Below, in pieces: positions 3,039 through 23,169 of a DNA stretch of 24,874 bases. Origin of the DNA: an uncultured archaeon (lineage in GTDB: Archaea > Asgardarchaeota > Thorarchaeia > Thorarchaeales > Thorarchaeaceae); the NCBI GenBank assembly GCA_964648855.1, contig CAZYLT010000016.1, positions 29,799-54,672 on the forward strand. Direction: 5' to 3'. The notes beneath the pieces are model-generated. The model made no database searches. It worked only from the letters and a program-made list of their open reading frames with translations, and had not been told where the DNA came from. Made by a program: the position numbers and the translations under genes. Each line of letters begins with the position of its first letter. Position 1 is the first letter of the stretch.

Positions 3039-4946
3039 CTATTTCCCTCCCTCCAATCTAATATGATGTGGCGCATCCACAGGGCACACCTGTCGACATT
3101 CAAGACAGCCATCGCATAGGTCTTGTTGAATCATCATCTTGTGGTCGGTTTCATCTATCTCGATAGCAGGGCAGTAAAACTCTTTCACACAGGCATAGAT
3201 TCCTCTACAGGTTTCTTTATCATTTTCACTAGGAATGATCTTCTCGCCCGCTCTTTTCTTCTCACGGTCTCCATATAGCGCACATGCCCGCCGAGAGATG
3301 ATGACTGAGAATCCTTCAGCCTCAATCGCGTCCATCATTGGTTTGATGCAATCCCTCGTTTCATAGGGATCGACCACAGTGATATTGTCCGCTCCGAGGC
3401 CCTCGAACATTCTTTCCATGTCTATTTTCCTAGCCGGGCTTCTTCCTGCGTCGTAGGGGGAGTTTGGATTGAACTGCTGACCTGTCATGGCTGTCACAGA
3501 GTTGTCAAGAACAAAGAGGGTGACATTGGCATTATGATGAATTAGGTTCACAATTCCAGGGAGGCCTGCATGATATAGGGTCGAGTCTCCGACCATCGCA
3601 ATGACCTTATCCTCTAGAGACATCTCCATTCCGGCAGATACCCCCAGAGAAGCACCCATCGCCAGCATAGAGTCACTGAACTCATTGGGTGGTAGGAATG
3701 CCATCGAGTAGCAGCCTATGTCGTTATTGAAGACAATACTATCTCTGATTTTCAACCTCTTCAATGCTTGCCTGAATGCCCAGAGAGTGCCTCTGTGAGG
3801 ACAGCCCGGACAGAATATAGGATTTCTGTCAGGAAGTATCTCTTTTAGCTTCTGTGCTCGTTCGAGGATTGCGTCATAATCCGCACTGGGTTCTTTGCCA
3901 GTCACCTCTGCTAGCACCTTTTCTACTATCGGCACGTTGTATTCGTACATCTCACTAAAATGCCTACTTTCTTTGCCGATAAATTCTATATTTGGATTGG
4001 CATCCTTCGCAATAGAACGAACGCGGGTCTCCAAATAAGGTGTCAATTCCTCAACTACTACGACCCTATCTAATTCACGGATGAACTCTGCAATCTTCTT
4101 CTTGGGAAGGGGAAAGAGTGTGCCAATCTTCAATAGTGGGAGATTGAGACCGAGATTTTGCATCGCCTCTTTTGCATGGAGGTAACAAACCCCTGCGGTG
4201 ATGATCCCGACCTTGCCCTCTTCTTCTTCGATGATATTGAACCTCGTCGTTTCGAATTCTCTCTCTATCTTCTCGGCCTTCTCCAAGAGCTTTGCCTTTA
4301 ACTGCCGAGCGATTGCTCCAACGGTATAGTATCGTTCTTTAACATCTGCCCACTTGTTCTTCTTGAAGGGGGTTCTATCCAGCTTGCCAAGTCTTACCAT
4401 TCCTCTCTGGTGGTTTACTCGGGTGGTGGTTCTCATGATGACTAGTGTCTTGTACTTCTCAGATACATCAAAAGCCCACTTCACCATGTCATGAGCTTCT
4501 TGAGCTGTGGAAGGCTCTATCATTGGAACATAAGCAGCTTCTCCGAAGTATCTGCCGTCTTGCTCAGACTGTGATGAATGTGCATGGGGATCGTCAGCAA
4601 TTAGGCATACACATCCAGCGTTGACTCCGGTGTATCCAATGCTAAACATGGCATCACTTGCAACATTCATACCGACACTTTTCATAGATGTGAAGGAGCG
4701 TTGTCCGGCCATTGATGCTCCTGCTGCTGTTTCAAGTGCGACCTTCTCATTAGCAGCGATTTGCATTTTGTAATTGCCAAATTCCTTCATCACTTCTCCG
4801 AATGTATCTAGTATCTCTGAAGTCGGAGACCCCGGGTAAAATGCTACAACTTTAACGTCCGCTTCGAGGGCTCCTCTGACTACAGCTTCATTTGCTAGCA
4901 TCAGGGCCGGGCCCGTATCTTCTCTCAAAACATCTTCAACTGTCAT
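3039..4946 (-). CDS. iorA: Indolepyruvate:ferredoxin oxidoreductase subunit alpha
   Basis: ANEAVVRGA, YPGSPTSE, NEKVALE, SSQSEQD, FCPGCPHR, DIGCY, TPP motif GDST...LDN..TAMTGQQ, and a C-terminal ferredoxin domain; GGAGGT RBS upstream. Confidence 0.95.
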   Translation of the reverse strand: MTVEDVLREDTGPALMLANEAVVRGALEADVKVVAFYPGSPTSEILDTFGEVMKEFGNYKMQIAANEKVALETAAGASMAGQRSFTSMKSVGMNVASDAMFSIGYTGVNAGCVCLIADDPHAHSSQSEQDGRYFGEAAYVPMIEPSTAQEAHDMVKWAFDVSEKYKTLVIMRTTTRVNHQRGMVRLGKLDRTPFKKNKWADVKERYYTVGAIARQLKAKLLEKAEKIEREFETTRFNIIEEEEGKVGIITAGVCYLHAKEAMQNLGLNLPLLKIGTLFPLPKKKIAEFIRELDRVVVVEELTPYLETRVRSIAKDANPNIEFIGKESRHFSEMYEYNVPIVEKVLAEVTGKEPSADYDAILERAQKLKEILPDRNPIFCPGCPHRGTLWAFRQALKRLKIRDSIVFNNDIGCYSMAFLPPNEFSDSMLAMGASLGVSAGMEMSLEDKVIAMVGDSTLYHAGLPGIVNLIHHNANVTLFVLDNSVTAMTGQQFNPNSPYDAGRSPARKIDMERMFEGLGADNITVVDPYETRDCIKPMMDAIEAEGFSVIISRRACALYGDREKKRAGEKIIPSENDKETCRGIYACVKEFYCPAIEIDETDHKMMIQQDLCDGCLECRQVCPVDAPHHIRLEGGK

Positions 4947-5150
4947 TCCTATTTACCTCCAGTAATTGAACAAAGGTTTCCCAAAATAACGGTATAGACA
5001 AAATAAGCATTGGCTTCTATTCTTTGATAGTATATTCCCGAGAATTCGTACCATCTATACGGTTAAACAATATATGTGATATCAAATACAGGAAAACAAA
5101 CTCATAGAAAATGCCCGTTTACTTGCTACGACAGTTGGGAGCACGCTAGA

Positions 5151-5441
5151 ATGAATCTGAAGATAACTTGTCCAGAATGTGACAGTGACGCTACACTCTC
5201 GCTTAGTGAAGAGCAACAAAATGACGTGAAAAATAAGATTCGTTCTGAAGGTAGGTCTCCAACGCTCATTACTGAGTGCTCTCAGGGACATGAACTACTA
5301 ATAACTCTGTATTTTCGCGGTTCCAACCTTTCAGTGCGCGACGTCATTGTCGCATACAAGACTCAACCTGAAGAGCACGATTCGGACGAGAGCCCATCTG
5401 AAATCGATTGGGTCAAACAGGCATTTGGGGATGGAAGATAG
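5151..5441 (+). CDS. Small putative Zn-binding protein (CPEC...CxxGH)
   Basis: Start refined to ATG 5151 (MNLKITCPEC). CxxC and CSQGH give a C3H ligand set; acidic linker and C-terminal IDWVKQAF; stop abuts the next ATG. Confidence 0.7.
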   Translation: MNLKITCPECDSDATLSLSEEQQNDVKNKIRSEGRSPTLITECSQGHELLITLYFRGSNLSVRDVIVAYKTQPEEHDSDESPSEIDWVKQAFGDGR

Positions 5442-5819
5442 ATGGTTGTGCGACTCGTAGCCAGAATTCAAATGGATGATCTTAATCCTGAAGTCATATA
5501 TCCTCGTGGTGATAGACAGGATGAGCGTATAGCTAAGCTGACGGGTATCATTCAGTTGGTTTCCGTGGCGTTAGAAAGGAGTGAGGTTTCTACTGAGAAA
5601 AGATGCACTCCCATGTATATGAAATCTGAAACTGGTGTAATCGGATATTGCCAGCTGGAAGATCATATTCTGATATGCGAAGGCGATGCCGAGCGTGAAA
5701 CTGCTGATGCTTTACGAGTCATCATTGACCGGGCTGATTCTTCTTTTGAAGAGTTGAGTGAGAAAGTTGAGAGCGTTGTGGAAAAACGAGGGAAAGAGAT
5801 AGGAGATTTGTGGAGATAG
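5442..5819 (+). CDS. Putative longin-like domain protein
   Basis: 125 aa; by-eye secondary-structure order b-b-a-b-b-b-a-a (VRLVARIQ/EVIYP/DERIAKLTGIIQLVSVALER/PMYMK/VIGYCQL/HILICEG/ERETADALRVIIDR/FEELSEKVESVVEK). The CDS is well supported; the fold is inferred. Confidence 0.55.
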   Translation: MVVRLVARIQMDDLNPEVIYPRGDRQDERIAKLTGIIQLVSVALERSEVSTEKRCTPMYMKSETGVIGYCQLEDHILICEGDAERETADALRVIIDRADSSFEELSEKVESVVEKRGKEIGDLWR

Positions 5820-5831
5820 GAGGAGGTATTT

Positions 5832-7205
5832 TTGGATTTTCAACTCTCATTAACAATTAGCGGAATAGTTACGATTGCTCTTTTGTTTGCAGCGTCCATT
5901 TTGTTCGCCTCTCGCCTCTCGAAGGTCTTCGATGATTTAACTCATGAAACCCGACGTGCTCTGTCGTTTTTCGGGTTCTCGTTGATATCAATGGGAATGA
6001 TAGTCGTGCAAGCTTTAGTCTTACCTGGATTGGTCACAATATGGGTCGCACTCGTGTTGTGTTTGCTCGTCATATCCCAATCCTACCTATTTGCAAGTGG
6101 TAAGAAATTCCTGCATTCTAGCATTTTGGTTTCATTTATCATCTTCTTGGCAATCACTGTTGAAACAATTTTTCGACTATCGGTATCAATCATTCCTATT
6201 GCATTGATTGTTGGAATGTCTACATTACTCGTTGCTGCAACCGGAATGGGAATCTACCTATTGGTTAAGGCACCATCTCCATTTACAGGCTCAATCATGG
6301 TCCTTCTCATAACCTTCATCATCACTTGGTTGTCTGCGTCTTCGGGGGCGGTTGCAACCAACCCCGAGTACTTCATGCTAGAAGTCACGCCCATTGCTAT
6401 CGCTGCTTCTATTCTAGCAGCAACCCTAAAATCTTGGCGTTATATTGTGATTTATTCCTTGGGAGCTCTTGGATTTATCATCAGTATCTCGCTCGCAATC
6501 CCTGCATTTCTTGCGGGTGATTTCTTTATCTGGACCTATACTCTCATAGCACCCATTGCGGGGATATCTGTTATTGTTCCTTTAGACTTCTTCCTTTCTC
6601 AAGTAGAAGAACTGAAGACACGAACGCCTCAATTCATTTCATTGACTCTGATAGGTGTGGGCCTCCTAGCTGTTACTCATGCTAATGCCTGGGCAATTGC
6701 CGTCGAACGGGGAGCTTGGGACACTAATCTTCTATACATTGATTGGATTATTGGTGTTATCGCGGTTATGGCATTCACATTAGCTGGGTTGTCTTCTGTA
6801 CTGAGCCAACGAGCCACCGGCTATATTGTTGATATTCAACTATTTATCGCAACTATATTCTTTATCCTGGGGCATCCATTCATCCAAGCGGGGAGATTCC
6901 AGCTACAACCCCTATATGTTCCTCTTGCAGGAATCATCCTCATCGGTGTGGTTTCTCATGTGTATTCAGCACGAGCAATTGCCAGAGCAGGTTCGCCAAC
7001 TGCTGCACGGAGATTCATTATGTTCATTATGGCATCACTTGGAATCGGTATTGTTGCCATGTTCTCAGATATTATCCCGTTTGGCGTAGTGATTATTCTT
7101 CTTGTTTCGGTTGCAATGCTGCTTATCTTAAGCGCGCCAAGGAGGCAATCTGTCCAAGCCCCCCCGGAAGATGCGGACATTCAATCACCTGAGGAGGAGA
7201 TATAG
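5832..7205 (+). CDS. Polytopic membrane protein (~15 predicted TM helices), paralog A
   Basis: Almost entirely hydrophobic segments; TTG start behind a strong GGAGGAGGT RBS; full-length similarity to 7207..8556. Confidence 0.85.
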   Translation: MDFQLSLTISGIVTIALLFAASILFASRLSKVFDDLTHETRRALSFFGFSLISMGMIVVQALVLPGLVTIWVALVLCLLVISQSYLFASGKKFLHSSILVSFIIFLAITVETIFRLSVSIIPIALIVGMSTLLVAATGMGIYLLVKAPSPFTGSIMVLLITFIITWLSASSGAVATNPEYFMLEVTPIAIAASILAATLKSWRYIVIYSLGALGFIISISLAIPAFLAGDFFIWTYTLIAPIAGISVIVPLDFFLSQVEELKTRTPQFISLTLIGVGLLAVTHANAWAIAVERGAWDTNLLYIDWIIGVIAVMAFTLAGLSSVLSQRATGYIVDIQLFIATIFFILGHPFIQAGRFQLQPLYVPLAGIILIGVVSHVYSARAIARAGSPTAARRFIMFIMASLGIGIVAMFSDIIPFGVVIILLVSVAMLLILSAPRRQSVQAPPEDADIQSPEEEI

Positions 7206-7206
7206 G

Positions 7207-8556
7207 ATGGATTTTGGGTTATCATTCCATCTTGGTGCAGTTACGGTATTATTCATCTTGATTGTATCTTTGGTGAGATATTCAAAATCGATTCTTGCTG
7301 TACGCAATAGGGTTTCATCGGCTACAATCAAGGCGCTGATTTTCTTTGGCCTTGCAGGTGCTACACTCAGTGTAATTGCATTTATATCAACATTGACTGA
7401 GGGTACCATAGGAGTCCGGTTGTGGATTGTCTTCTTCTTTGTCTTCCTCATAAATGCACAGATGCAAATTTTTACGGAAAACAGATACGCTCACTATGGG
7501 ACTTATGCAGTTGCTGGTGTGGCGACGATCTGGTCAGTATTCGTAGCCCTTGGGAGTCCAACAGAGATATCGCCGGTATTGAGTCTAGCCCTCTATGTAA
7601 CATTTTCAGTTGCACTACTCCTCTCGATTTGGCTTCTTTATGATTCTCCCTCTCCCTTCACAGCTGGTATGCTGATAATTCTGCTGTCCTTTTTGGGCGC
7701 ATGGTTTTCTATCATAACGGGTGTAATTTTCACTGACCAACAATATTTCATGATTGTGCTTCTCCCCGCAGTAGTTTCCGCATCTATTTTGGCTACCATG
7801 CTCCAGCCGTGGAAGCAGACCATCACTACATTCATGCTCCTCATGGCTGTCGTTGTGGCTGTTTCTATCATTCCTGTGGCTTTCATTGCCGGACAATTTG
7901 AAATCTGGAGTTTTGTAGCACTCTCTTCATTCGTTGCTCTTGCCGCAATAGGCTCAATAGATTTCTTTGTCGAGCAGGCCCTGGAAACAAAAGCACGTAT
8001 TCCGTCTCTCATTGCATTTACGCTGATCTGTATTTCCATGATTGCAGTCATTCATGGCATTTTTTGGGCATCCTTGATTGACACGGGAGTCCAGGATGAA
8101 CCTATGATATTTCTAGAATGGATTTTTGGGGTGTTGGGTGGGTCAAGCTTCGTCTTGGCGGGTGTTTTCTCGACTGTTTCGCCTAGTATTCAACGGGTAG
8201 CAAGACATTTGATGGTGGCATTCAGCGGTGCTATGATAGTGTTGGGTCATGAATATGTTAGAATGAATCGCTGGGTGTACAATGATTTGTTCCTGATCCT
8301 AGCTGGAGCTCTTACCATAGGCATTATCGCGTATATTCGTGTTGCACTACGATTAAGGCGGCTTGGGTCAAAAAGGGCCTCGCGCAATTTCATAGCTTTC
8401 ATGCTTGCCGCTTTAGGAGCATCAATCGTAGCCATCGCTTCTGACAACTTACCGTTACCCTTATCTCTTACACTCCTTGCTCTGACAGGGATCATGTTGA
8501 TTTTTAGCAGTCCTCGTATAATCGGAAGGAGAGGCAAGAATAGCAAAAAAGAATAA
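7207..8556 (+). CDS. Polytopic membrane protein (~15 predicted TM helices), paralog B
   Basis: Start refined to ATG 7207 (MDFGLS, compare MDFQLS in paralog A) after GAGGAGGAG; shares PSPFT, SILA..L..W, DFF..Q..E.K.R.P, LGH and GS..A.R.FI.F motifs with paralog A. Confidence 0.85.
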   Translation: MDFGLSFHLGAVTVLFILIVSLVRYSKSILAVRNRVSSATIKALIFFGLAGATLSVIAFISTLTEGTIGVRLWIVFFFVFLINAQMQIFTENRYAHYGTYAVAGVATIWSVFVALGSPTEISPVLSLALYVTFSVALLLSIWLLYDSPSPFTAGMLIILLSFLGAWFSIITGVIFTDQQYFMIVLLPAVVSASILATMLQPWKQTITTFMLLMAVVVAVSIIPVAFIAGQFEIWSFVALSSFVALAAIGSIDFFVEQALETKARIPSLIAFTLICISMIAVIHGIFWASLIDTGVQDEPMIFLEWIFGVLGGSSFVLAGVFSTVSPSIQRVARHLMVAFSGAMIVLGHEYVRMNRWVYNDLFLILAGALTIGIIAYIRVALRLRRLGSKRASRNFIAFMLAALGASIVAIASDNLPLPLSLTLLALTGIMLIFSSPRIIGRRGKNSKKE

Positions 8557-8596
8557 ATTGCGCTCTTTATTGGAATAAGTGAAAGGAGATGCGTCG

Positions 8597-9139
8597 TTGG
8601 CAATAATCAAGGCGGTAATACTCGGTGATACAGAATGTGGGAAGACCTCCTTCACTCAAAGGTGGACCACCGGGAGCTTTCCTGACCCAGAACAGCTCAA
8701 GACCACTGTGGGCGCTGCTTTTGACACAAAGAAGATTGAATTGCCTAGTGGAAAGCAGACCACGTTGAGCCTATGGGATTTCGGGGGTCAAATGCGATTC
8801 ATTGAAACCCTGCAGGGCATGATACGTGGTGCAAAAATCGGGCTCTTATTCTTCGATGTTTCTAAGATGTCCACTCTAGACTCACTCTTTGGGTACTGGA
8901 TTCCACGGATAGAAAAAAACAGCCAATTGTCTTTCGTTGAGGATGCCGGAAGCCGCTTTCTACTGGTGGGAAACAAGATTGATCTTCTCAATCCACCGTT
9001 TGATAATGTAGAAGAAGAGATGGATAAGTATGCAAAACAATATGGCATTAAGACTCAATTGATTTCTGCCAAGACCGGAATCGGCATTGAGAGCCTCGAC
9101 TACAAGTTCATGCAGATTATTGAGCAGTTTGCCGAATAG
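8597..9139 (+). CDS. Small GTPase, Rab/Ras-superfamily-like
   Basis: G1 GDTECGKT, G2 TTVG, G3 WDFGGQ, G4 NKID, G5 SAKTG. Likely TTG start at 8597 after GGAG (ORF track starts at GTG 8579). No C-terminal Cys lipidation motif. Confidence 0.93.
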   Translation: MAIIKAVILGDTECGKTSFTQRWTTGSFPDPEQLKTTVGAAFDTKKIELPSGKQTTLSLWDFGGQMRFIETLQGMIRGAKIGLLFFDVSKMSTLDSLFGYWIPRIEKNSQLSFVEDAGSRFLLVGNKIDLLNPPFDNVEEEMDKYAKQYGIKTQLISAKTGIGIESLDYKFMQIIEQFAE

Positions 9140-9167: not shown

Positions 9168-9644
9168 CTAGCCGCCCGGGCTCCCATGCCACGGACTATC
9201 TTTCCAGAATGTGTCCCAAATCATGTCTTCCGTAAGGGTTTCTGGAGAAATGACCGTTTTGTGTAACTCCTTCAGAAGGCTATGGTGCTTGATTTCATCT
9301 TCTTTGATGATTGATGCAATGGTCATAACTTGATGATTGTCGGTGGACTCGACGAGTTTGCCATAAGTGTCGATGGCCTTTTCCTCCAACTCTATGTGCT
9401 TTTCGATTCCTTTCGCTATACCATCTCGTTCTTCTTCGCTAATGAATGGAGTTGGTCCTGCAACTGCTTCCTTGAGGGCACCTAGCAACTCAGCGTGCTT
9501 CTTGGAATCCCGTGAAATTGCAAGCAATAACACCTTTACAAAGGCGTTTCCAAGTTTTTCGACATTGGATTCAATAAGAGCGATTATCTTATATTCAAGC
9601 TTTACTTGTTCTTCAATAAATTCCAACGTTTGTTCTTTGTCCAT
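9168..9644 (-). CDS. Ferritin-like/rubrerythrin-like protein
   Basis: EQVKLE...DSKKH and HIELEE...DEIKHH di-metal-type repeats; C-terminus WKDSPWHGSPGG; GGAG RBS. Confidence 0.78.
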   Translation of the reverse strand: MDKEQTLEFIEEQVKLEYKIIALIESNVEKLGNAFVKVLLLAISRDSKKHAELLGALKEAVAGPTPFISEEERDGIAKGIEKHIELEEKAIDTYGKLVESTDNHQVMTIASIIKEDEIKHHSLLKELHKTVISPETLTEDMIWDTFWKDSPWHGSPGG

Positions 9645-12231: not shown

Positions 12232-13299
12232 TCAATCCCATTTTACCCTTTTTTCTTCAATCAGATCCTCAATGGCAAAGGGGATATCATCAGAGTTTCT
12301 TAGAGATGCTTTGGCACGGATTTCTGTATGAGGTGACACAGTCATATCTTCTAAATTACTGCATGCAAATAGTGGACTAATCTCCAGTTCCCTGATATTG
12401 TTCTCATCGGGGTGGTCGCTGTAGATATAGAGGTCCTCAAGTGACTTACATTTCGCTAGGGGGGACAAATCTAAGGCTTGCAGGTCATTTCCTGCTACGT
12501 CTAGCGCACGCAATTCAGGACAATTCTCTAATGATTGCAGATCGAGTTCTGTGATTCGGTTCATTGCCAAGCCAAGCCTTCTCAGTTCACCACAGTTCGA
12601 TAATGGGCTCAAGTCTAGAGACTCCAGATCGTTACCGCCTAGTCTGAGAATTCTGAAGTCATGCCAATTATCCATTGGCGAGAGATCTATTTCAGAGAGC
12701 ATATTATGATGAAGATAGAGAAAATTCATCTCTTCACAACCTGCAAGGGGAGACAGGTCTAGCGAGGTCAGCTCATTGTACATCAGATTGACCTGATTAA
12801 GGTGATTACACTTGGCAAGCGGACCTAAGTCTATCGATGCTATTTGATTATTCTCTAGTTCCAGCGATTCCAAATACGTGCAAGCTGAAAGCGGCTCCAA
12901 GTCTATCTCTGCAATTTGATTGTTGAATAAACGAATCCTTCTTAGGTCAGTTCTGGATAGAGGCTCCAAGGATATTGATGCGAGCTCGGTTGACCCAAGA
13001 TTCAGCTCTTGCAGGTTCTCGCAGTTTCTTAGCGGTTCGATATCAATTGTTCCTAAAGGGTTCTTGAAGAGATTAAGTGACTGCAAATCGGGGCATTCGC
13101 CTAATGGCGTTAAATCCACGCTTTCTAGATAGTTTGCGCCTAAATCAAGAGAAACGATTCCAGTCCTTTCTGCCAAGGGCGTCAAATCTACTTGCGAGAT
13201 TTTTTTCCGCCGTAGCTGAATGGAAGACTCGCCCTCTTTTACCTCATACGTTCTATCTCTTCCATCCTTGTCGATATAGCTAATCCGAATTTCTGCCAT
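12232..13299 (-). CDS. Leucine-rich repeat protein (~12 repeats of 24 aa)
   Basis: Consensus LxxLxLxxNxLxxLDLxPLxxCxx; probable start ATG 13299 after GAGG (ORF track extends to 13320). Confidence 0.93.
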   Translation of the reverse strand: MAEIRISYIDKDGRDRTYEVKEGESSIQLRRKKISQVDLTPLAERTGIVSLDLGANYLESVDLTPLGECPDLQSLNLFKNPLGTIDIEPLRNCENLQELNLGSTELASISLEPLSRTDLRRIRLFNNQIAEIDLEPLSACTYLESLELENNQIASIDLGPLAKCNHLNQVNLMYNELTSLDLSPLAGCEEMNFLYLHHNMLSEIDLSPMDNWHDFRILRLGGNDLESLDLSPLSNCGELRRLGLAMNRITELDLQSLENCPELRALDVAGNDLQALDLSPLAKCKSLEDLYIYSDHPDENNIRELEISPLFACSNLEDMTVSPHTEIRAKASLRNSDDIPFAIEDLIEEKRVKWD

Positions 13300-13476
13300 C
13301 CGAAGGTCCTCAGCATTCATGATTCTTTACTAATTGCAGCTATACATCTTATTCAATCTTGTTGCGGAATGAGTGGGTTGTCATTTCATCGTCCATGCAA
13401 TTCTCCGTCAATCGCTTCGTCGTTTCAGTTGGATTTTTAAACAGTTGTCTAATTTGGAAAATCCACTATCTGGAGC

Positions 13477-16165: not shown

Positions 16166-17743
16166 GTGGAAAAGAGTCGCTCGTGGACACGAGTGATACG
16201 CGTGACATACTATTGCTTCCACCAGCCAGTTCCGATGCGAGATGGCGTCGAGTTATCGGCAATTGTAACTCATCCAGAAAAAGTAGGAAAATACACCTGC
16301 GTCCTCATGAGAACCCCTTACAATGCGAAGGCATTCATTCAGTTAGCGGAAGCCCTCTTGGAGAAGGTGCCTTATGCCTTTGTCATTCAGGACACTCGCG
16401 GAAGGTATGACTCACAGGGCAAGCGGTTCATCCCACTGCGCGAGAGGGAAGATTCGCTTGACACGTTTGCATGGATTAAGAAACAATCATGGTCAAATGG
16501 ACGCGTTGTTGTTTTCGGCCCTTCGTACTTGGGGTATGCGGCCTTGCAGGTCTTGGATGACGAATGTGACTGCATCGATGCAGTCTTTGCTCCGATGACG
16601 TTCACGCGTCCAGATGATGGAATGGTATACCGAAGCGGTGTATTGCAATTGCATTGGGCACTCCCATGGGCTATAATGACCTCTACACGAACCCAGGCTT
16701 CTCTGAAATTGATTAATGGATCTTGGCCTGATGCCTATAGGGGACCGTTAAAGAATAAAGTAAAAGGGCTTGGCTGGCCCCAGCATGTTTGGGATACATT
16801 CCTCACACCGCTCGAAAGCAAAATGTGGGAAAATTCTCGCCTTAAGTTTGAGAACCCTCTCAAGTCAAGGGCGTGTCTCGTTGGTGGATGGTACGACTTT
16901 CTCCTCGGCGGTACTCTAACCAGCTATGAGGACCTCGTGGCTGTTGGCGGCATTAAGCCGGACCTAATAATTGGCGGTTGGGGTCACAACGGGTACCTCC
17001 AAAGTCTTTCGGGAGTTGGTGATTTCGATTTGGGTGAGGGTGGCAGAGGTCAGGCTATGAAAGACTTCCTAGATTTGATATCTCGGGCAGAGTCAGAGGA
17101 TGAGCAACTCATCCGAGTCTACATCCTCCGCTCAGACAGATGGCTGGAATTGGATGATTGGCCGCCAACAAATACCGTTGAAGAAAAGCTTTACCTGGGC
17201 TGCGGCTATGAGTTACTGAAGAAACCCCCTGAGGACGAAATGGAATTTGGCATTCCAGTTGAACCCAGCGATCCTGTTCCCACGATTGGTGGTTCAGTGT
17301 GGGAGTTTCCGCCACATCTTGAACCAGGACCCGCCGACCAATCCTCATTGGATCATAGATCTGACATTATTCGCTTCATATCTCCTCCAATGAAACAATC
17401 TAGGACTCTTCTTGGGCCCATCTATGCCAAGCTTTGGGTATCTACTCCAACCGATAACCTCCACTTCACAACCAAACTCACAGTGATTACGGAAGGGAAG
17501 GAACGTATCATCCAAGATGGAATTGCTTGTGTTGAGTCCACCAAGAATTCCTCTAAACCGGTTACTATTGATCTGCTTGCCACTGGAATGGAGATAAAGA
17601 AAGAGGAAAGCTTGGGATTACATATCTCATGGTCCAATTTTCCCAAATTTGCACTTCCCGAATTAGACAAGCCGGTTGTTCAGTCTGTCTTCACATCAGA
17701 TTCCATGCCATCATATGTTTCAGTATCCTATCTCGATGAGTAA
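16166..17743 (+). CDS. CocE/NonD-family hydrolase (S15-like alpha/beta hydrolase)
   Basis: PMRDGVEL, RTPY, QDTRGRYDSQG, WSNG, nucleophile GPSYLG, GGWYD, GGWGH, DPVPTIGG. True start uncertain (GTG near 16193-16202 is possible). Confidence 0.9.
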   Translation: MEKSRSWTRVIRVTYYCFHQPVPMRDGVELSAIVTHPEKVGKYTCVLMRTPYNAKAFIQLAEALLEKVPYAFVIQDTRGRYDSQGKRFIPLREREDSLDTFAWIKKQSWSNGRVVVFGPSYLGYAALQVLDDECDCIDAVFAPMTFTRPDDGMVYRSGVLQLHWALPWAIMTSTRTQASLKLINGSWPDAYRGPLKNKVKGLGWPQHVWDTFLTPLESKMWENSRLKFENPLKSRACLVGGWYDFLLGGTLTSYEDLVAVGGIKPDLIIGGWGHNGYLQSLSGVGDFDLGEGGRGQAMKDFLDLISRAESEDEQLIRVYILRSDRWLELDDWPPTNTVEEKLYLGCGYELLKKPPEDEMEFGIPVEPSDPVPTIGGSVWEFPPHLEPGPADQSSLDHRSDIIRFISPPMKQSRTLLGPIYAKLWVSTPTDNLHFTTKLTVITEGKERIIQDGIACVESTKNSSKPVTIDLLATGMEIKKEESLGLHISWSNFPKFALPELDKPVVQSVFTSDSMPSYVSVSYLDE

Positions 17744-17784
17744 ATAAGATAGGACCCATATCCCAATTCAGAGGAGCCGAGAGA

Positions 17785-18360
17785 TTGACAGTTGCCACTT
17801 ACAAAGTCCTTTTGATTGGTGAACCTAATGTGGGGAAGAGCTCCATTATTAGAAGGCTTCTATTGGGAGACTTTGATGAGGAGTATAATGCCACTGTTGG
17901 CGTAGACCTAAGTGCAGTCCCCTTGAATATCGACCCTATCACCCCTGTGATTCTAACCCTCATTGACCTGGGAGGGCAGGAAGACTTCTCGGCCCTTAGA
18001 ACGCAGTACTATAGAGGGGCACATTTTGCCCTTCTTGTATATGATGTGGCAGACAGATCTTCCTTTGAATGCCTTGATTCCTGGCACGAGGGTCTAATGA
18101 GCAATCTAGAAACACAGAAGAAAATGGATCTTCCTGGCATCATTCTTGCCAACAAAAAAGACCTGTCAAATAGACGCGAAATTCCTTCCTCAGAAGGGAG
18201 AAAATACGCTGAAGAACTCGACTGGCCCTTCTTTGAATGCAGTGCTAAGACTGGCGAAAACATTGAAGCGGTCTTCATGAGAATCGCCAAGGAGCTCTAT
18301 GCGGATTATCCCCCCAGAAGACTACCTCGTCATAGGAAGCAGGTCCCTGAGAATGAGTGA
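17785..18360 (+). CDS. Rab-like small GTPase
   Basis: G1 GEPNVGKS, YNATVGVD (RabF1-like), DLGGQE, YYRGA and LVYDV (RabF4/F5-like), NKKD, CSAKTG; GAGGAG RBS. Confidence 0.95.
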   Translation: MTVATYKVLLIGEPNVGKSSIIRRLLLGDFDEEYNATVGVDLSAVPLNIDPITPVILTLIDLGGQEDFSALRTQYYRGAHFALLVYDVADRSSFECLDSWHEGLMSNLETQKKMDLPGIILANKKDLSNRREIPSSEGRKYAEELDWPFFECSAKTGENIEAVFMRIAKELYADYPPRRLPRHRKQVPENE

Positions 18361-18435
18361 CGCTATTTTCCCATTCCCTGTAAGTTATTAATCGCCTCAA
18401 CTTAACTATAGATAGTACAAGGGAGCTAAGAATAG

Positions 18436-19206
18436 ATGTTTGAACTTGCAACTGAATTGGGAAAATGTACCTTGATGACTGGGGATGGCGAATCTGCAGA
18501 TGTAGTGGCATTCCTGTTTGATGACCGAGAATGGCACATAGACTACCTGATTGTGGATACGGATGAGTGGCTAACTGGCCGGAACGTTCTTTTGTCTACT
18601 GAAACTGTTGGAACGCCAGATGTCGCCGAGAAGGTGATACGAACAGATTTACGAAAGTCACGAATTGAAGATGCTCCTAGTGTAGACCTGAGCAAACCGA
18701 TCTCCGAAAGAGAACTGGCTGACCTGCATCGGTACTATGAATGGTCTACATTCAGACCCGGGATACTTCCGGACGAGCCTACTACTGTTCCAGGAAGTGC
18801 AATGCCCGACTCTATCACAACACAATATGCAATCACTGACGAATCTAGAGGCGAAGAGCATAGAGCTCCACCCCCTGAAAGGCATCTTAGAAATACATCT
18901 GAGGTTCATGGCTATTCTATTCAGCTGGCAGACGAGATGCTAGGGCGTGTCGCCGACTTTTTTGTGGACACTGATGACTGGAATATTAGGTACCTAATTG
19001 CAGATGTTGGCAACTGGAAGGAAGGAACAGAGTACGTTGTGCCAACCATGTGGGTTGAGTCAATCGACTATCTGGAACAAAAAATGCGTGTTGGTGTCAA
19101 GAGGTCACAGTTTGAAGAGGCGCCCAAGTTTGACCGCGGTGGAGAATTTACTAAAGAAGAAGAGCTGCGATTTTATGAGCATTTTGACTTACCTGGATAC
19201 TGGTAA
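18436..19206 (+). CDS. Tandem PRC-barrel domain protein
   Basis: Two repeats: FLFDDREWHIDYLIVDTDEW and FFVDTDDWNIRYLIADVGNW, each followed by APxxD and a LxxYY/FY...W motif. Confidence 0.85.
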   Translation: MFELATELGKCTLMTGDGESADVVAFLFDDREWHIDYLIVDTDEWLTGRNVLLSTETVGTPDVAEKVIRTDLRKSRIEDAPSVDLSKPISERELADLHRYYEWSTFRPGILPDEPTTVPGSAMPDSITTQYAITDESRGEEHRAPPPERHLRNTSEVHGYSIQLADEMLGRVADFFVDTDDWNIRYLIADVGNWKEGTEYVVPTMWVESIDYLEQKMRVGVKRSQFEEAPKFDRGGEFTKEEELRFYEHFDLPGYW

Positions 19207-19232
19207 CGAGGCATCCAATCTTCCTAGATAAT

Positions 19233-19256
19233 GGGCGAGCCCAACCATGCTCGCCC
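19233..19256 (+). terminator. GC-rich hairpin downstream of the PRC-barrel gene
   Basis: GGGCGAGC-CCAACCAT-GCTCGCCC, a perfect 8-bp stem 26 nt after the stop; no strong U-tract, so the terminator role is uncertain. Confidence 0.4.
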
Positions 19257-19531
19257 CGTGTTTACCTGAGGATATAGAGGGAATTTTGTACTACCTGAAA
19301 TACTGGGTTAATACTGCGTGTAACGATGTAATGTTTGTTAATAGAACAATGATGGATTTTCAGTTTAGAAAAGCAACCATTATTAGAAAGCGGTTTCCAT
19401 TCTTCAGTACCTACAAAATACATAATGGTCGCTCGATAAGGAACTCACTGGCATACGCTGCAGAACTATGCTACAAGTCAAACACCGGCTTTCGGGGTTA
19501 TGATTATGACCGTGTTAGTAAGAGGTAAAAT

Positions 19532-20959
19532 ATGATGATGGAAAATCTAAAGAAAGCTGTGCGGCATGGCGAGAAGTTGGGCGCAGATTTCGTGGAATCT
19601 CGCTTCGATGACTTAGTACTTAGAACGCTGATACGTACAGATGAAACATGGAAGGACATCCAAGCAAAATCGCGAATGGGTTTTGGAATAACCTGCTATG
19701 TAGAGGGAGTGAGTGGGTTCTCGTTCACACCAAGTCCCGAGGAATCTGATGTGGTTTCTGCGACGGAGCGTGCCTTTAAGATGGCGAAGGCATCCGCAAA
19801 TTCAGCGGATCTGAAATTGCCTTTCGATGAAGAACCCCCTGTGAAGAGCAATCCTTCTGATATCGTGAAGGTCAAGCAACATCCGCGTGACGTTTCCATC
19901 GATTTCAAAACTGAAATGCTCAACAGGGAAGTCGAATCTGCAAAAGAACATGGCGAGAACGTTAGGAGAATCAGAGCAAGATACGGTGAATTATATGGAC
20001 AGAAAATGCTCTATAACAGTGATGGTTCAGAAATCGACTGGGAGTTTCTAGTTGTTGATACAAGATGCAACGTAACTTCGAAGACCGATAGTGGTGCAAT
20101 GGTAATAGGTGCAGAAAGTCATGGCGGCACGTGGGGCATCGAATATTACAACCAGAAGGAAAAAACTCCCGAAGACATTGGCCGCTTGTGCGCATTGCGG
20201 GCTAAGGAACAGCTAGCAGCAAAAGCCTGTCCTGCAGGGCAGTTCAGATCCTTGATACAAGAAGATCTTGTAGGTGTCCTAGCTCATGAGTCATTCGGAC
20301 ATCTGAGTGAAGCAGATTTTGTCGTGACAGGAGGCTCCCCTCTTACAGGAAAATTGGATGAGCAACTCGGAACAGAGCATGCAACAATTATAGATTCTGG
20401 TGTTCCTGACTTGAAGAAATTTGGTGGGCTTTGGGTTCCGTATGACGATCAGGGGACTCCGGGAAGCGAAACGGTGGTCCTAGATAAGGGAAGATTGGCT
20501 CATTATCTTCATAATAGAGGAACTGCTACGAAATTAGGGCAAGAGCCAACTGGCAACGCACGAGCAGTGAGTTTTGTCTTTCCTCCTATAGTGCGAATGA
20601 CAAACACCTACTTCGCCCCAGGTGACCTTTCAGAGGAAGAGGCACTGGAAAAACTTGATACCGGAATTTATGCCATCCAGAGCTCGGGAGGTCAAGTTAC
20701 CTCTGATGGCAGCTTTTTGTTCAAGGCTCTAAGAGGCTATTGGGTTGAGAGTGGTGAAAAGAAATATCCGATTAGAGAGGTTTCGCTCTCTGGTAACATC
20801 CTAGATTTGCTCTCTAGGGTAGAAGGTGCAACAAAGAACCTAGAACTGCACTCGGGATACTTCGGAGGCTGTGGAAAAGGTGACCAGTTCCCGCTGCCAA
20901 CCGGTTTGGGGGGACCAAAACTCGTTGTCGACAGCGTTACATTTGGAGGCCAGGCATAG
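19532..20959 (+). CDS. tldD: TldD metalloprotease
   Basis: GVLAHESFGHLSEAD (HExxGH), YDDQG, TGNAR, RMTNTY and GCGK..Q...G.GGP. Confidence 0.93.
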   Translation: MMMENLKKAVRHGEKLGADFVESRFDDLVLRTLIRTDETWKDIQAKSRMGFGITCYVEGVSGFSFTPSPEESDVVSATERAFKMAKASANSADLKLPFDEEPPVKSNPSDIVKVKQHPRDVSIDFKTEMLNREVESAKEHGENVRRIRARYGELYGQKMLYNSDGSEIDWEFLVVDTRCNVTSKTDSGAMVIGAESHGGTWGIEYYNQKEKTPEDIGRLCALRAKEQLAAKACPAGQFRSLIQEDLVGVLAHESFGHLSEADFVVTGGSPLTGKLDEQLGTEHATIIDSGVPDLKKFGGLWVPYDDQGTPGSETVVLDKGRLAHYLHNRGTATKLGQEPTGNARAVSFVFPPIVRMTNTYFAPGDLSEEEALEKLDTGIYAIQSSGGQVTSDGSFLFKALRGYWVESGEKKYPIREVSLSGNILDLLSRVEGATKNLELHSGYFGGCGKGDQFPLPTGLGGPKLVVDSVTFGGQA

Positions 20960-20970
20960 GAGGAATTGAA

Positions 20971-22365: not shown

Positions 22366-22385
22366 CAAAATGCGATTTGCTCTTC

Positions 22386-22404
22386 GACCCGGGCTGACCG
22401 GGTC
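22386..22404 (+). terminator. Hairpin after the tldD-pmbA operon
   Basis: GACCCGG-GCTGA-CCGGGTC, a perfect 7-bp stem followed by pyrimidine-rich CTCCTTTTCT. Confidence 0.45.
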
Positions 22405-22529
22405 ATCACTCCTTTTCTGTAGATTGTAATTTGCAAGGTTATACTTATCAGAGCTTGAGCTTACAATCTCACCAACGTTTCGAGTTAGCCATCATATTGT
22501 ACCACTCGATAACGAATGGGGAAAGGCAA

Positions 22530-23102
22530 GTGAGCTCAGAACATGATCGCTACAAAGTAATTGTGGCAGGGGACACAGAACTGGGGTACAGCCTTTGTGC
22601 CAAATTGACGAACGAATCTATCAGGCACCCTAGAAGGCTTGCAGCACAGGCTTTGGCAAGAGATTGGCCAGAGGTTGAGTGGACGAAATTCATGTCAGTG
22701 TCGGTCCATGGTGAGATAACTACGATGGAACTGGATTTAGAACTTCATGGACCCTGGGTTTGGGAGCTGTATAATGTCATGCAGCCGAGGGACTACTATC
22801 GCCGATTTGATGCTGCACTCATAGTAGCCAATCCTCGTGACCCTGATTCATTTGCTCATATTCCAGAGCTTCTTGAAGCTATTCGCGCTCATATAGACGG
22901 ACAAATTCCAACTTTCCTTGTTGGCGAGTCTTCATTGGATTTGAGTGATGAAGAGAGAAAAAGAATAATTGAATTAGGCATTCTGCTAGATTTGCCTGTT
23001 AAAATGGCAAATGTAGAAACCGGAGACAACATCGACCAAGTATTTAGAGAACTTGCCATCGATATTCAGGTAGACAAAGAGGCAGGCATTATTGGGTCTT
23101 GA
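22530..23102 (+). CDS. Degenerate small-GTPase-fold protein (pseudo-GTPase)
   Basis: YKVIVAGD, DYYRRFDAALIV, DSF, PTFLVG and NVETGDNIDQVFRELA align with the Rab scaffold, but G1/G3/G4 catalytic residues are altered. Likely GTG start at 22530; ORF intact. Confidence 0.75.
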   Translation: MSSEHDRYKVIVAGDTELGYSLCAKLTNESIRHPRRLAAQALARDWPEVEWTKFMSVSVHGEITTMELDLELHGPWVWELYNVMQPRDYYRRFDAALIVANPRDPDSFAHIPELLEAIRAHIDGQIPTFLVGESSLDLSDEERKRIIELGILLDLPVKMANVETGDNIDQVFRELAIDIQVDKEAGIIGS

Positions 23103-23169
23103 CCAGATGGGTTTCTGAAATTAGAAGGAGCCCTGACTGAATTTGGCAAGGCTCCGATACAGTTCATAT

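Follow-up and report, generated by a model that had tools for sequence, protein, structure and literature searches.

Organization of the locus

The window, that is, the whole stretch of 24,874 nucleotides analyzed here, comes from an uncultured archaeon of the family Thorarchaeaceae and carries five genes on the forward strand at 5151-9139, recognized from ORF calls and by direct reading of the sequence. They encode a C3H zinc-ribbon protein of 96 aa (g1, 5151-5441), a predicted longin-fold protein of 125 aa (g2, 5442-5819), a predicted 15-TM protein of 457 aa (g3, 5832-7205), its paralogue of 449 aa (g4, 7207-8556) and a Rab/Ras-like small GTPase of 180 aa (g5, 8597-9139). The genes are spaced by 0, 12, 1 and then 22 or 40 nt: the ATG of g2 abuts the stop codon of g1, g3 starts with TTG 12 nt past g2 and has GGAGGAGG upstream, g4 starts 1 nt past g3 and has GAGGAGGAG upstream, and g5 starts with TTG 8 nt past AAGGAGA. 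An in-frame GTG at 8579 is an alternative start of g5, so the last gap was given as 22-40 nt in an earlier note on this DNA; the orthologues of g5 start at the position of the TTG.

Upstream, iorA (3039-4946, reverse strand; TIGR03336, E 1.8e-197) diverges from the operon and has in common with it a presumed promoter region (4947-5150) containing A/T-rich TATA-like stretches. Downstream, a ferritin/rubrerythrin-like gene with weak matches (9168-9644, reverse strand) is convergent with the operon. The ORF calls, the direct reading and the TIGR03336 match confirm what the earlier note had seen, namely five co-oriented genes with these gaps between iorA and a ferritin-like gene. The divergent iorA arrangement is seen again in most Thorarchaeaceae loci and the common promoter region is conserved across the family, in which the operon adjoins iorAB, with several peptidase genes near.

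The small GTPase and the two small proteins

g5 has the motifs G1 GxxxxGKT, the switch I Thr, G3 DxxGQ with the catalytic Gln, G4 NKxD and G5 SAK, and these are conserved in 28 orthologues. It matches Ras (E 2.2e-25) and Roc (E 2.8e-19) in Pfam, is under the cut-off for Gtr1_RagA and lacks a C-terminal roadblock domain; among solved structures, Rab28 and a Thorarchaeota Rab, 7EZB (E 3e-17), are nearest. It forms a separate orthogroup, its best paralogue in the genome scoring 60.6 bits versus 408 bits for g5 itself. It contains no C-terminal Cys, no lipidation site and no N-terminal amphipathic helix. The description of g5 as a non-lipidated Rab-like GTPase with intact G1-G5 motifs therefore stands.

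The N-terminus of g1 is a Brz-type Zn β-ribbon, which is followed by GRSP and VRD motifs, a variable acidic linker and a C-terminal DW..FGG. Residues C7, P8, C10, G34, S36, P37, C43, H47, R63, W87, F92 and G93 are invariant in 28 cassettes, and the Cys7, Cys10, Cys43 and His47 among them bear out the assignment of g1 as a Zn-binding protein. Zn_ribbon_Brz of Pfam matches the N-terminal 50 residues in 25 of the 28 members (best E 6.3e-7), g1 of the window itself reaching 26.7 bits, under the cut-off of 27.9, and the NCBIfam Brz equivalog gives it 14.4, far under the cut-off of 100. Neither g1 nor g2 matches DUF2072 (ArvC) or DUF2073 (ArvB).

By sequence, g2 has no match in Pfam, including the roadblock and longin families. 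However, its AF2 model (pLDDT 85.7) has the topology β-β-α-β-β-β-α-α, which is the longin strand order, and its top 50 structural matches by VIA-align all belong to the longin/roadblock superfold. The top ones (Z 8-10) are the longin domains of DENND1A (Z 10.0), Fuzzy and VAMP7, LAMTOR2 and TRAPP subunits, and Rag C-terminal domains are also found among the matches, so that the designation longin-like is upheld for the predicted fold. The C-terminus has a conserved ..LW(R/G) end in which W124 is invariant.

The double-7TM proteins

g3 and g4 are indeed the paralogous membrane pair that had been noticed, since BLASTP aligns them over the full length with 28% identity (E 3e-61). The AF2 model of g3 (pLDDT 94.2, pTM 0.90) predicts a 7TM bundle, a linker helix and a second 7TM bundle (7+1+7), with the N-terminus outside and the C-terminus inside; both 7TM bundles are modeled with high confidence, and g4 would have the same architecture by homology. 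Lys and Arg residues of g3 number about 16 on the loops assigned to the inside and about 2 on those assigned to the outside. The conserved motifs are located on the cytoplasmic loops, and columns conserved at 80% or more are 11/63 in inside loops and 2/46 in outside loops. The extracellular loops have 2-9 residues each.

Residues 1-204 of g3 give Z up to 15.8 and residues 229-445 give Z 10-11.8 to GPCR/rhodopsin-type 7TM chains (VIA wide), these values being in the range (Z 10-16) where helical bundles may match through their arrangement alone, and the best 50 structural matches are all GPCRs (class A, B, C or adhesion) or rhodopsins. In the ESM Atlas, g3 is similar to membrane modules found in bacterial sensor proteins, with a 7TMR-DISM_7TM-type match at residues 237-428, and Foldseek gave no PDB match at E ≤ 1e-3, LYCHOS being only a weak hit in its output. 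The TM proteins have no sequence match to any receptor family, and those of the window and 39 relatives match no transporter, channel or enzyme family in Pfam or NCBIfam; a match to an unrelated transporter or enzyme family, which would have spoken against the earlier proposal, was thus not found. The two halves have no mutual sequence similarity. The invariant residues of the whole family are G387 and P436 only. There is no conserved charged or polar intramembrane residue such as is usual in ion-coupled transporters or hydrolases, and no residue pattern suggesting a ligand site; as read from the sequence, the retinal-binding Lys is missing from both seventh helices.

Most relatives have a single TM gene, and because of this the heterodimeric sensor postulated earlier is not a general property of the system. 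g4-type orthologues are found only in two-TM cassettes, and the second copy is limited to a subset of genera.

Distribution and evolution of the cassette

The order Zn, longin, TM (one or two) and GTPase characterizes 32 cassettes (29 complete) from 15 genera of Thorarchaeaceae, and is present in every adequately covered locus of about 30 genomes of the family. A TM profile search among 1.84 billion representatives gave 67 proteins only, and the distant full-length ones, from Odinarchaeia and 'Asgardarchaeia' MAGs, all lie (7/7) within the same four-gene order. In these six distant loci, the homology of g1 and g2 was confirmed, the iorA linkage is absent and the flanks are unrelated (a ribosomal operon, ArsB, PEPCK, hisD and an M1 peptidase). 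Because the gene order is common to 32 related cassettes and six distant loci with unrelated flanks, the operon is far beyond chance. The cassette is conserved as a unit across three Asgard classes, and the synteny among Asgard genomes on which the earlier proposal depended does exist. It is missing, on the other hand, from 40 of 85 Thorarchaeaceae genomes, roughly half, and is therefore dispensable.

Tandem cassettes are present in four genomes. All four genes of cassette L040a are nearest to those of L061 and all four of L040b to those of L041; tandem duplication has copied whole cassettes, whose four genes have diverged together. In one genus (three genomes), a g1-like gene and the g5 orthologue are all that is left in the iorA/ferritin locus; g2 and the TM gene are found nowhere in these genomes, and the g1-like protein has a polybasic tail (KKKARKRK) instead of the DW..FGG tail motif. 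Here the longin and TM genes have been deleted in place. Other Thorarchaeaceae have a paralogous, permuted cassette, in the order GTPase, Zn-ribbon, small protein and a TM protein of 464 aa; compared with the main cassette by hhalign, its TM protein matches over the full length at 86.5% probability and its Zn protein at 97.6%. In none of the contexts seen is the cassette linked to coat-like or ESCRT genes.

Comparison with known systems

The literature searched contains no publication on this cassette, and to this extent the earlier statement that no described system has its composition holds; its architecture, however, has an analogue, and the closest known one is the actinobacterial conservon (AGPS). 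The conservon (CvnA-CvnD; Mfp operon) combines a membrane sensor with a roadblock protein, a small GTPase and a further small protein of unknown function, and has been proposed to be a membrane-associated, G-protein-like regulatory complex (PMC4316618, PMC13343842). Each is an operon of four genes in which a membrane protein gene is combined with those for a Ras-superfamily GTPase, a small protein and a member of the roadblock/longin superfold, and whole units are multiplied within genomes in both. However, CvnA is histidine-kinase-like with HAMP and HK, whereas the 15-TM protein has no kinase or soluble domain; CvnB is a roadblock protein of the MglB type, but the strand order of g2 is that of longins; g1 is a Zn-ribbon without a match to Pfam families of unknown function; CvnD is an MglA-family protein, but g5 a Rab/Ras-like one whose G3 is a normal DxxGQ; and the conservon is bacterial, the cassette Asgard archaeal.

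In MglA-MglB-type pairs and the Asgard LAMTOR1-like/Rab-like/DENN operon (PMC10933270; bioRxiv 10.1101/2020.10.19.343400), a GTPase gene likewise lies beside a roadblock/longin-superfold gene, which is expected to be a GAP or GEF platform, and the Asgard pairs share with the cassette the lineage and a Rab-like GTPase without prenylation. As described, these pairs have neither a membrane protein nor a Zn-ribbon protein, unlike the cassette, which in turn has no DENN domain.

In the eukaryotic Rag-Ragulator system, the polytopic lysosomal SLC38A9 or the GPCR-like LYCHOS/GPR155, together with roadblock/longin scaffolds, controls a non-lipidated GTPase. LAMTOR2 and Rag C-terminal domains are among the structural matches of g2, but g5 has no C-terminal roadblock domain, it is below the Gtr1_RagA cut-off, and SLC38A9 and LYCHOS have no sequence homology to the cassette TM proteins; the similarity is one of logic, not of demonstrated descent. 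With GPCRs and 7TMR-DISM proteins, the cassette shares seven-helix bundles, N-out and C-in, and a GTPase genetically coupled to a 7TM protein. However, its TM protein has two bundles per chain, no ectodomains, no fused output domains and no sequence family membership, and, unlike in GPCR systems, the GTPase is small and Ras-like, not G-alpha, and any coupling would go via the longin and Zn-ribbon proteins.

In haloarchaeal ArvABC, too, an archaeal small GTPase is encoded in one operon with a Zn-ribbon protein and a second small protein (PMC10927574), but ArvA is Arf/MMR_HSR1-like. In Halobacterium, Brz is co-transcribed with the small protein Brb upstream of bacterio-opsin (PMC2253796, PMC3184054), that is, a Zn-ribbon of the Pfam domain type of g1 and a small protein are encoded upstream of a 7TM gene; the bop locus, however, has no GTPase, and the cassette TM proteins lack the retinal Lys.

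Proposed mechanism

The earlier interpretation, a membrane sensor signaling through longin/Zn adaptors to a GTPase, is partly supported overall. We consider it somewhat probable (about 0.55) that the five genes encode one Asgard-specific membrane-associated small-GTPase switch module; the gene structure, folds, conservation as a unit and co-divergence described above are its basis, and the physical contacts, the direction of signaling, the input and the output are what we infer. The catalytic site of g5 is complete, but a lipid anchor is missing, and g5 therefore needs protein partners, through which it would reach the membrane. g1 would be its core partner: the N-terminal Zn-ribbon/β-hairpin part with the invariant Arg63 would face g5 and might serve, by analogy, as a GAP-type or effector-type element, and the C-terminal DW..FGG peptide would tether the g1-g5 pair to the other members of the module. 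g2 would be a longin/roadblock platform for g5, a GEF or GAP scaffold, as longin and roadblock domains are GTPase platforms in MglB, Ragulator, DENN, Mon1-Ccz1 and TRAPP (PMC3747258, PMC10933270). The double-7TM protein (g3 alone in most relatives, g3 and g4 here) would be the membrane anchor and probable sensor, with its conserved cytoplasmic loops as the docking surface. Its extracellular loops are nearly absent, and therefore the input would be a small molecule, a lipid or a membrane state and not a macromolecule. What state the 7TM bundles are in would determine which nucleotide g5 carries or whether it resides at the membrane, and the signal would flow from the membrane protein via the longin and Zn proteins to the GTPase. 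In this way the operon points to a switch that can be tested, with its likely regulators and membrane partner, in archaea closely related to eukaryotes.

Alternative explanations

The TM protein may instead be the target, a transporter, channel or lipid-handling protein controlled by the upstream GTPase and its longin/Zn partners, and this is unlikely but deserves serious attention. Synteny and co-divergence are equally compatible with a GTPase-upstream direction, the short extracellular loops leave no room for a ligand-binding ectodomain, and the iorAB and peptidase neighbors would suit nutrient uptake, but the Odin and 'Asgardarchaeia' loci do not have this iorA neighborhood. Moreover, the window proteins and 39 relatives fall into no transporter, channel or enzyme family of Pfam or NCBIfam, the two invariants G387 and P436 are not accompanied by a conserved intramembrane charged or polar residue, and the best 50 structural matches contain receptors and rhodopsins and no transporters.

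It is rather improbable that the module serves membrane remodeling or trafficking, with the TM protein recruiting the GTPase, or exchanging its nucleotide, for budding, vesicles or protrusion dynamics, much as Sec12 is a membrane-fixed recruitment and exchange platform for Sar1. The nearest structures to g5 are of the Rab family, longin domains are typical of trafficking GEFs and coats, and the polybasic g1 tail of the reduced variant suggests direct membrane binding; however, g5 has no amphipathic N-terminal helix, and coat-like and ESCRT genes are unlinked to the cassette. The haloarchaeal GTPase ArvA with its Zn-ribbon partner ArvC is comparable, and this archaeal operon of a GTPase, a Zn-ribbon and a small protein controls vesicle formation (PMC10927574), but g1 and g2 do not match ArvC (DUF2072) and ArvB (DUF2073).

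The likelihood is lower again that g1 is a Brz-type zinc-finger transcription regulator whose release from the TM protein is controlled by the GTPase and longin proteins, the output being gene expression, for example of iorAB. The Zn_ribbon_Brz match in 25/28 members would fit this, although g1 of the window is itself under both the Pfam and the NCBIfam cut-off, and so would the iorA-operon promoter region conserved in Thorarchaeaceae, although the iorA linkage is missing in the other classes. Brz regulates the bop mRNA, and its gene immediately precedes that of the 7TM protein bacterio-opsin (PMC2253796, PMC3184054), but DNA binding was not demonstrated in the Brz paper, and the retinal-binding Lys is missing here.

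Finally, because the wider neighborhood (iorA upstream, ferritin downstream) is also conserved within Thorarchaeaceae, family-level synteny alone is weak functional evidence, but that the genes are mere neighbors, held together by slow rearrangement in one family and with no joint function, is hardly credible and is contradicted by the four-gene order in unrelated contexts of two other Asgard classes, the tandem whole-cassette duplication with congruent divergence of four genes, the permuted paralogous cassette with the same four kinds of protein, and start and stop codons that abut or are 1-12 nt apart.

Organization of the Cassette

The cassette at positions 5151-9139 consists of five plus-strand genes, which encode a Zn-ribbon protein (g1), a longin-fold protein (g2), two paralogous double-7TM membrane proteins (g3 and g4; TM proteins, together with their relatives) and a Rab/Ras-like small GTPase (g5). 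The operon is opened by g1 (5151-5441, 96 aa), whose stop codon is directly abutted by the start of g2 (5442-5819, 125 aa). Next come g3 (5832-7205, 457 aa), with a TTG start preceded by GGAGGAGG, and, after a gap of 1 nt, g4 (7207-8556, 449 aa), with GAGGAGGAG before its start. The last gene, g5 (8597-9139, 180 aa), has a TTG start after AAGGAGA, and an in-frame GTG at 8579 is an alternative start. The unit is flanked by iorA (3039-4946, minus strand; TIGR03336, E 1.8e-197), which is divergent from g1, and by a ferritin/rubrerythrin-like gene (9168-9644, minus strand; all matches weak), which is convergent with g5. The intergenic gaps, ribosome-binding sites and operon boundaries described in the earlier note proved correct on ORF calling and direct reading of the five genes. 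A scan for promoters and terminators with bacterial models, which are not applicable to archaea, gave no excess over shuffled sequences.

The nearest public record for g3 comes from a Candidatus Thorarchaeota metagenome-assembled genome (MAG), with 71% amino-acid identity and an identical gene order. The stretch is present in DNA runs of a microbial-mat metagenome study, and no RNA run is listed among those that contain it.

Conservation of the Cassette as a Unit

A search with g3 gave a match in 40 of the 85 other Thorarchaeaceae genomes (the family to which the window belongs) and just one marginal match (E 3.2e-4) in the remaining 314 sampled Asgard genomes. With a Thor profile and a distant profile the TM family was likewise confined to the window's own family among 400 Asgard species representatives, a sample which evidently excludes the Odin and "Asgardarchaeia" carriers and so does not give the true phyletic range. 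The loci around the g3 matches numbered 32, and every one with enough DNA had the order g1, g2, one or two TM genes and g5; they hold 32 cassettes, 29 of them complete. Synteny within the family is by itself weak evidence, since iorA and the ferritin-like gene share in it. The decisive evidence for the unity of the cassette comes from outside the family.

Among 1.84 billion cluster-representative proteins, the TM-family profile detected only 67, including seven distant full-length TM proteins, whose MAGs carry the labels Candidatus Odinarchaeia and Candidatus Asgardarchaeia. All seven are accompanied, in the same order, by genes for proteins of ~95 aa, ~130 aa, ~440 aa (one or two copies) and a Ras-family GTPase of ~190 aa, and they lie in wholly unrelated surroundings (a ribosomal protein operon, ArsB, PEPCK, hisD and an M1 peptidase). 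The small genes in these loci were recognized by the profiles of g1 (E 1e-19 to 1e-23) and g2 (E 3e-5 to 8e-13). The gene order is conserved both in the family and in these distant MAGs with other neighbours, which bears out the synteny on which the earlier note had made its operon depend.

Furthermore, several genomes contain tandem copies of the entire cassette. The genome to which locus L040 belongs has two cassettes; here the nearest relatives of all four genes of one cassette lie at L061 and those of the other at L041; on these sequence relationships, the pattern is co-divergence, which is unexplained by the species phylogeny. Chance co-location of the cassette genes is excluded for practical purposes.

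The GTPase

The g5 protein matches Pfam Ras at 89.6 bits (cut-off 21.6, E 2.2e-25), and Pfam Roc also matches. It contains the motifs of the Ras superfamily, namely G1 GxxxxGK[ST], the switch I Thr, G3 DxxGQ, G4 NKxD and G5 SAK. The residues G10, G15, K16, T17, T37, D61, G64, Q65, K127, D129 and S157 do not vary in any of the 28 orthologues, the catalytic Gln of DxxGQ being among them. The nearest solved sequences are Rab28, Thor-Rab 7EZB (E 3e-17), Rab12 and Ypt7, all at E ~1e-17; the comparison covers these nearest solved sequences. The window's genome encodes about 15 small GTPases, in which g5 forms a separate orthogroup: its best in-genome paralogue scores 60.6 bits versus 408 bits for self, and its orthologues across the family share 54-86% identity.

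The C-terminal Cys for geranylgeranylation is absent from g5, which ends ...IEQFAE, and from every orthologue examined, so g5 does not belong to the Rab family proper as judged by this residue. The crystallized Thor-Rab likewise has no C-terminal Cys (PMC10933270). No N-terminal amphipathic helix was found in g5 either. With both features missing, g5 lacks an intrinsic membrane anchor. Members of the MglA family have an MglA-type G3 and, separating G1 from G2, the bacterial insertion (PMC4316618). The g5 protein is not one of them, since its G3 is the canonical D61-x-x-G64-Q65 and nothing is inserted in it by comparison with Rab structures. Nor is it a Rag/Gtr GTPase, being only 180 aa long without a C-terminal roadblock domain and scoring 17.7 bits for Gtr1_RagA against a cut-off of 22.

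The Zinc-Ribbon Protein and the Variant Cassettes

In g1, Cys7, Cys10, Cys43 and His47 are invariant, and so are G34-x-S36-P37, Arg63 (in a VRD motif) and a C-terminal W87..F92-G93 motif, which follows an acidic linker of variable sequence. The N-terminal half gives 26.7 bits with the Brz zinc beta-ribbon (Pfam PF23454; E 8.3e-6), just below the gathering cut-off of 27.9, and the same match is found in 25 of 28 g1 relatives (E <= 0.01, best 6.3e-7). The protein is not an NCBIfam Brz equivalog (14.4 bits versus 100 required). Halobacterium Brz, a small regulator with no established mechanism, has its gene immediately upstream of that for the 7TM bacterio-opsin, together with the gene of a second small protein (PMC2253796, PMC3184054). 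The cassette resembles this arrangement in its putative Brz-type Zn beta-ribbon (window 5151-5300), its second small protein and the seven-helix protein downstream, and this parallel with Halobacterium brz-brb-bop is a lead from Brz-type ribbons and 7TM proteins to a possible wider link between the two.

A reduced form of the cassette occurs at the iorA/ferritin locus of three genomes (87-90% complete) that belong to a single genus (L077:5514-6558, L078:4976-6022 and L079:5650-6640, in G376, G378 and G373, respectively), and consists of a g1-like gene followed by a g5 orthologue (59% identity) and nothing else. Neither g2 nor the TM family was found anywhere in these three genomes. The g1-like protein retains the Zn site, GRSP and VRD, and its DW..FGG tail is gone, a polybasic end, KKKARKRK, standing in its place. 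From this co-variation, on which the argument rests, we infer a division of labour in g1, its Zn-ribbon body working with the GTPase and its tail motif with g2 and/or the membrane protein; in the reduced variant a lipid-binding tail may replace the lost protein anchor.

Other Thorarchaeaceae carry a permuted paralogous cassette (L080:3176-6569, minus strand, and also L081 and L082; genomes G356, G348 and G336), which is absent from the window's own genome. It is ordered as a Rab-like GTPase, an 89-aa Zn-ribbon protein ending in DWFSSL, a 147-aa roadblock/longin-looking protein, a 464-aa polytopic protein distantly related to g3 along its whole length, and a 142-aa small protein. In hhalign comparisons with the main cassette, the TM proteins aligned over their full length with 86.5% probability and the Zn proteins with 97.6%.

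The Longin-Fold Protein

No curated family was found for g2: it had no Pfam or NCBIfam match, and its 28 relatives showed no consistent Pfam family. The Pfam longin and Robl_LC7 sequence families are thus not matched, and its profile gave only chance-level matches with PDB sequences. The assignment comes from the AlphaFold2 model (27 relatives, pLDDT 85.7), whose elements are strands 5-10 and 16-20, helix 27-46, strands 58-62, 65-71 and 75-81, and helices 84-96 and 102-124. The predicted order, b-b-a-b-b-b-a-a, is that of longin domains as opposed to the roadblock order a-b-b-a-b-b-b. In VIA-align the best match was the longin domain of DENND1A (Z 10.0, 112 residues aligned, rmsd 3.5), followed by Fuzzy (Z 9.4) and the VAMP7 longin domain (Z 9.3), with LAMTOR2, zeta-COP, TRAPP subunits and Asgard roadblock/longin structures at lower ranks; the best 50 matches all (50/50) have the longin/roadblock superfold. 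Foldseek against the PDB gave nothing at E <= 1e-3, the E-values being 3e-3 and above; though weak, every one of these matches is also of the longin/roadblock superfold. The longin fold proposed from the sequence alone is accordingly supported by the modelled structure, with no curated sequence family behind it.

The Double-7TM Proteins

The g3 and g4 proteins are paralogous over their full length (28% identity, E 3e-61), and no Pfam or NCBIfam family was matched by either or by 39 relatives. The model of g3, built with these 39 relatives, has a pLDDT of 94.2, a pTM of 0.90 and about 15 membrane helices. When it was compared exhaustively with 48,161 PDB representatives by VIA-align, the best 50 matches were seven-helix receptors and rhodopsins only. 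Residues 1-204 resembled designed GPCR-like folds (Z 15.8), ADGRL3 (15.1), mGlu2 (14.4) and GABA-B (14.1), overall Z to 7TM chains being 15.8-12, and residues 229-445 resembled adhesion and class B GPCRs (Z 10-11.8), with ~190-209 residues aligned for the halves, although Z values of this order are possible between helical bundles. Foldseek of g3 against the PDB gave nothing at E <= 1e-3, and the fold calls for both g2 and g3 rest on VIA-align. In the ESM Atlas, g3 is closest in shape to the membrane parts of SpoIIE, histidine-kinase and GGDEF proteins of bacteria, and one further structural row, the sole link to a curated 7TM family, is a cluster with 7TMR-DISM_7TM in 20% of its members; the leads from the feature search were all below 0.9.

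Since both halves have such structural matches, the architecture of g3 is read as 7TM, one linker helix and 7TM, and in the model the linker helix puts both bundles in the same N-out, C-in orientation. A sequence-level internal repeat is unsupported, hhalign of the N-terminal against the C-terminal half giving 8% probability. Lys and Arg average ~16 in the inside loops and ~2 in the outside loops, with loop sides as assigned, and the outside loops are only 2-9 residues each. Conserved positions cluster in the cytoplasmic loops: columns at 80% or more amount to 11/63 in the inside loops and 2/46 in the outside loops. The conserved cytoplasmic motifs are PSxF (148-151), PWR (201-203), ARTP (near 263-266), RxGxxxAAxRF (384-395) and SSP (434-436). 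No polar intramembrane residue is conserved throughout the family.

The sequences match no profile of GPCRs (7tm_1/2/3), of 7TMR-DISM_7TM or of any other curated 7TM family. A microbial rhodopsin is also rejected, as no Schiff-base Lys is present in either seventh helix (179-196, 418-433). The likeness of g3 to GPCRs is claimed for predicted fold and topology, not for homology; the double-7TM proteins constitute a confidently modelled new membrane-protein family. Nearly all Thorarchaeaceae members start with Met-Asp-Phe (window 5832-5840), which is lost in the Odin/"Asgardarchaeia" branch; the model places this N-terminus outside, without further extracellular residues.

Comparison with Known Systems

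The closest architecture, by analogy, is that of the actinobacterial conservon (CvnA-CvnD), now called the actinobacterial G protein system. The two are alike in architecture only, as a four-gene operon of a membrane protein, a roadblock-superfold protein, a small protein and a small GTPase. The CvnA-type kinase (HAMP, HisKA, HATPase_c) has no counterpart, g3 and g4 being all membrane helices with no soluble domain. The cassette is not a conservon member, because the defining domains are absent except for the GTPase superfamily and the roadblock/longin superfold. The Asgard operon of Liu et al., with a LAMTOR1-like roadblock protein, a Rab-like GTPase and DENN, differs in composition. The haloarchaeal ArvABC system also has a GTPase beside a Zn-ribbon and a small protein, but with other domains: that of ArvB is DUF2073 and that of ArvC is DUF2072 (PMC10927574), and neither is matched in g1, g2 or their relatives. 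Recent structural surveys report 7TM/GPCR-like clusters in Asgard archaea without a gene-context link to GTPases.

The cassette belongs with known operon layouts of a membrane protein, a roadblock/longin protein and a small GTPase, and can be classed among them. No published description of it was found in the full-text literature searched, and it is confirmed as a real, conserved and, as far as found, unpublished Asgard module.

Proposed Mechanism

We propose that the module is a small-GTPase switch tethered to the membrane, with the double-7TM protein serving as anchor and probably as sensor. This protein may act as a homodimer where there is a single gene and as a g3/g4 pair where there are two. 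The g2 protein would provide a longin platform serving the GTPase, and g1 would be both the core GTPase partner and a tether, its invariant Arg63 being a possible catalytic or recognition residue. The controlled quantity would be the nucleotide state or the membrane residence of g5. A four-chain complex prediction of g3 with g1, g2 and g5, made with row-matched alignments, gave ipSAE values of 0.01 and 0.05 (threshold 0.32); as four chains are outside the calibration of the method, these values count neither for nor against binding.

In the most far-reaching form of this reading, the double-7TM protein would be a true receptor, in which a small-molecule, lipid or membrane-state signal alters the cytoplasmic face, the bundles bind the conserved C-terminal Trp peptides of g1 and g2, and the nucleotide state of the Rab-like GTPase is switched. 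The Trp peptides would be bound much as the C-terminal helix of G-alpha is received in the cavity of a GPCR. We give this reading roughly one chance in four. The rival readings differ mainly in three respects: the direction may be reversed, the GTPase controlling the membrane protein; the purpose may differ and be membrane remodelling; or the output may differ, g1 acting as a Brz-like regulator. If the receptor reading is true, this would be an archaeal pathway from a 7TM receptor to a small GTPase, analogous in function and perhaps related to the eukaryotic logic of LYCHOS or SLC38A9/Ragulator/Rag and of GPCR/G protein.

The earlier note interpreted the genes as a membrane sensor acting through a longin/Zn adaptor on a non-lipidated GTPase; this interpretation is partly supported, in that the real, conserved gene unit stands, the genetic evidence for it being strong and its setting next to eukaryotes important, and the mechanistic steps are all ones that we infer.

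Asgard archaea encode dozens of eukaryote-like small GTPases and longin/roadblock proteins. To our knowledge, the partner, regulator and site of action are known for almost none of them. The cassette offers a genetically defined set for one GTPase: the switch itself, a longin-fold candidate regulator, a Zn-ribbon core partner and a receptor-shaped membrane partner. Moreover, the natural variants, that is, single and double TM genes, tandem subtypes, the permuted paralogue and the reduced pair with a polybasic tail, predict who binds what. Recombinant proteins would allow direct tests of how Asgard GTPases without a lipid anchor get to the membrane and read it, and of whether the coupling of a membrane sensor to a GTPase predates eukaryotes.

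Other Genes in the Window

A cluster of peptide-degradation genes occupies 16166-24678, including an S15 X-Pro dipeptidyl-peptidase, an M32 carboxypeptidase and, at 19532-22365, two TldD/PmbA metallopeptidase paralogues in tandem; together with iorAB upstream, it suggests a neighbourhood devoted to fermenting peptides and aromatic amino acids. A second, unrelated Rab/Ras-like GTPase (17785-18360, plus strand; Pfam Ras, E 1.7e-43) sits between the genes for the S15 peptidase and a PRC-barrel protein, without Zn-ribbon, longin or TM neighbours. An ORF at 22431-23102 (plus strand) matches Ras only weakly and in part (E 1e-4, residues 113-176), which is consistent with the degenerate "pseudo-GTPase" suspected from the sequence. 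In addition, a leucine-rich-repeat protein (LRR_4/LRR_8, E 1e-23 to 1e-26) is encoded at 12232-13320 on the minus strand, and enrichment of such proteins in Asgard proteomes has been reported (bioRxiv 10.64898/2026.10.28.762692).
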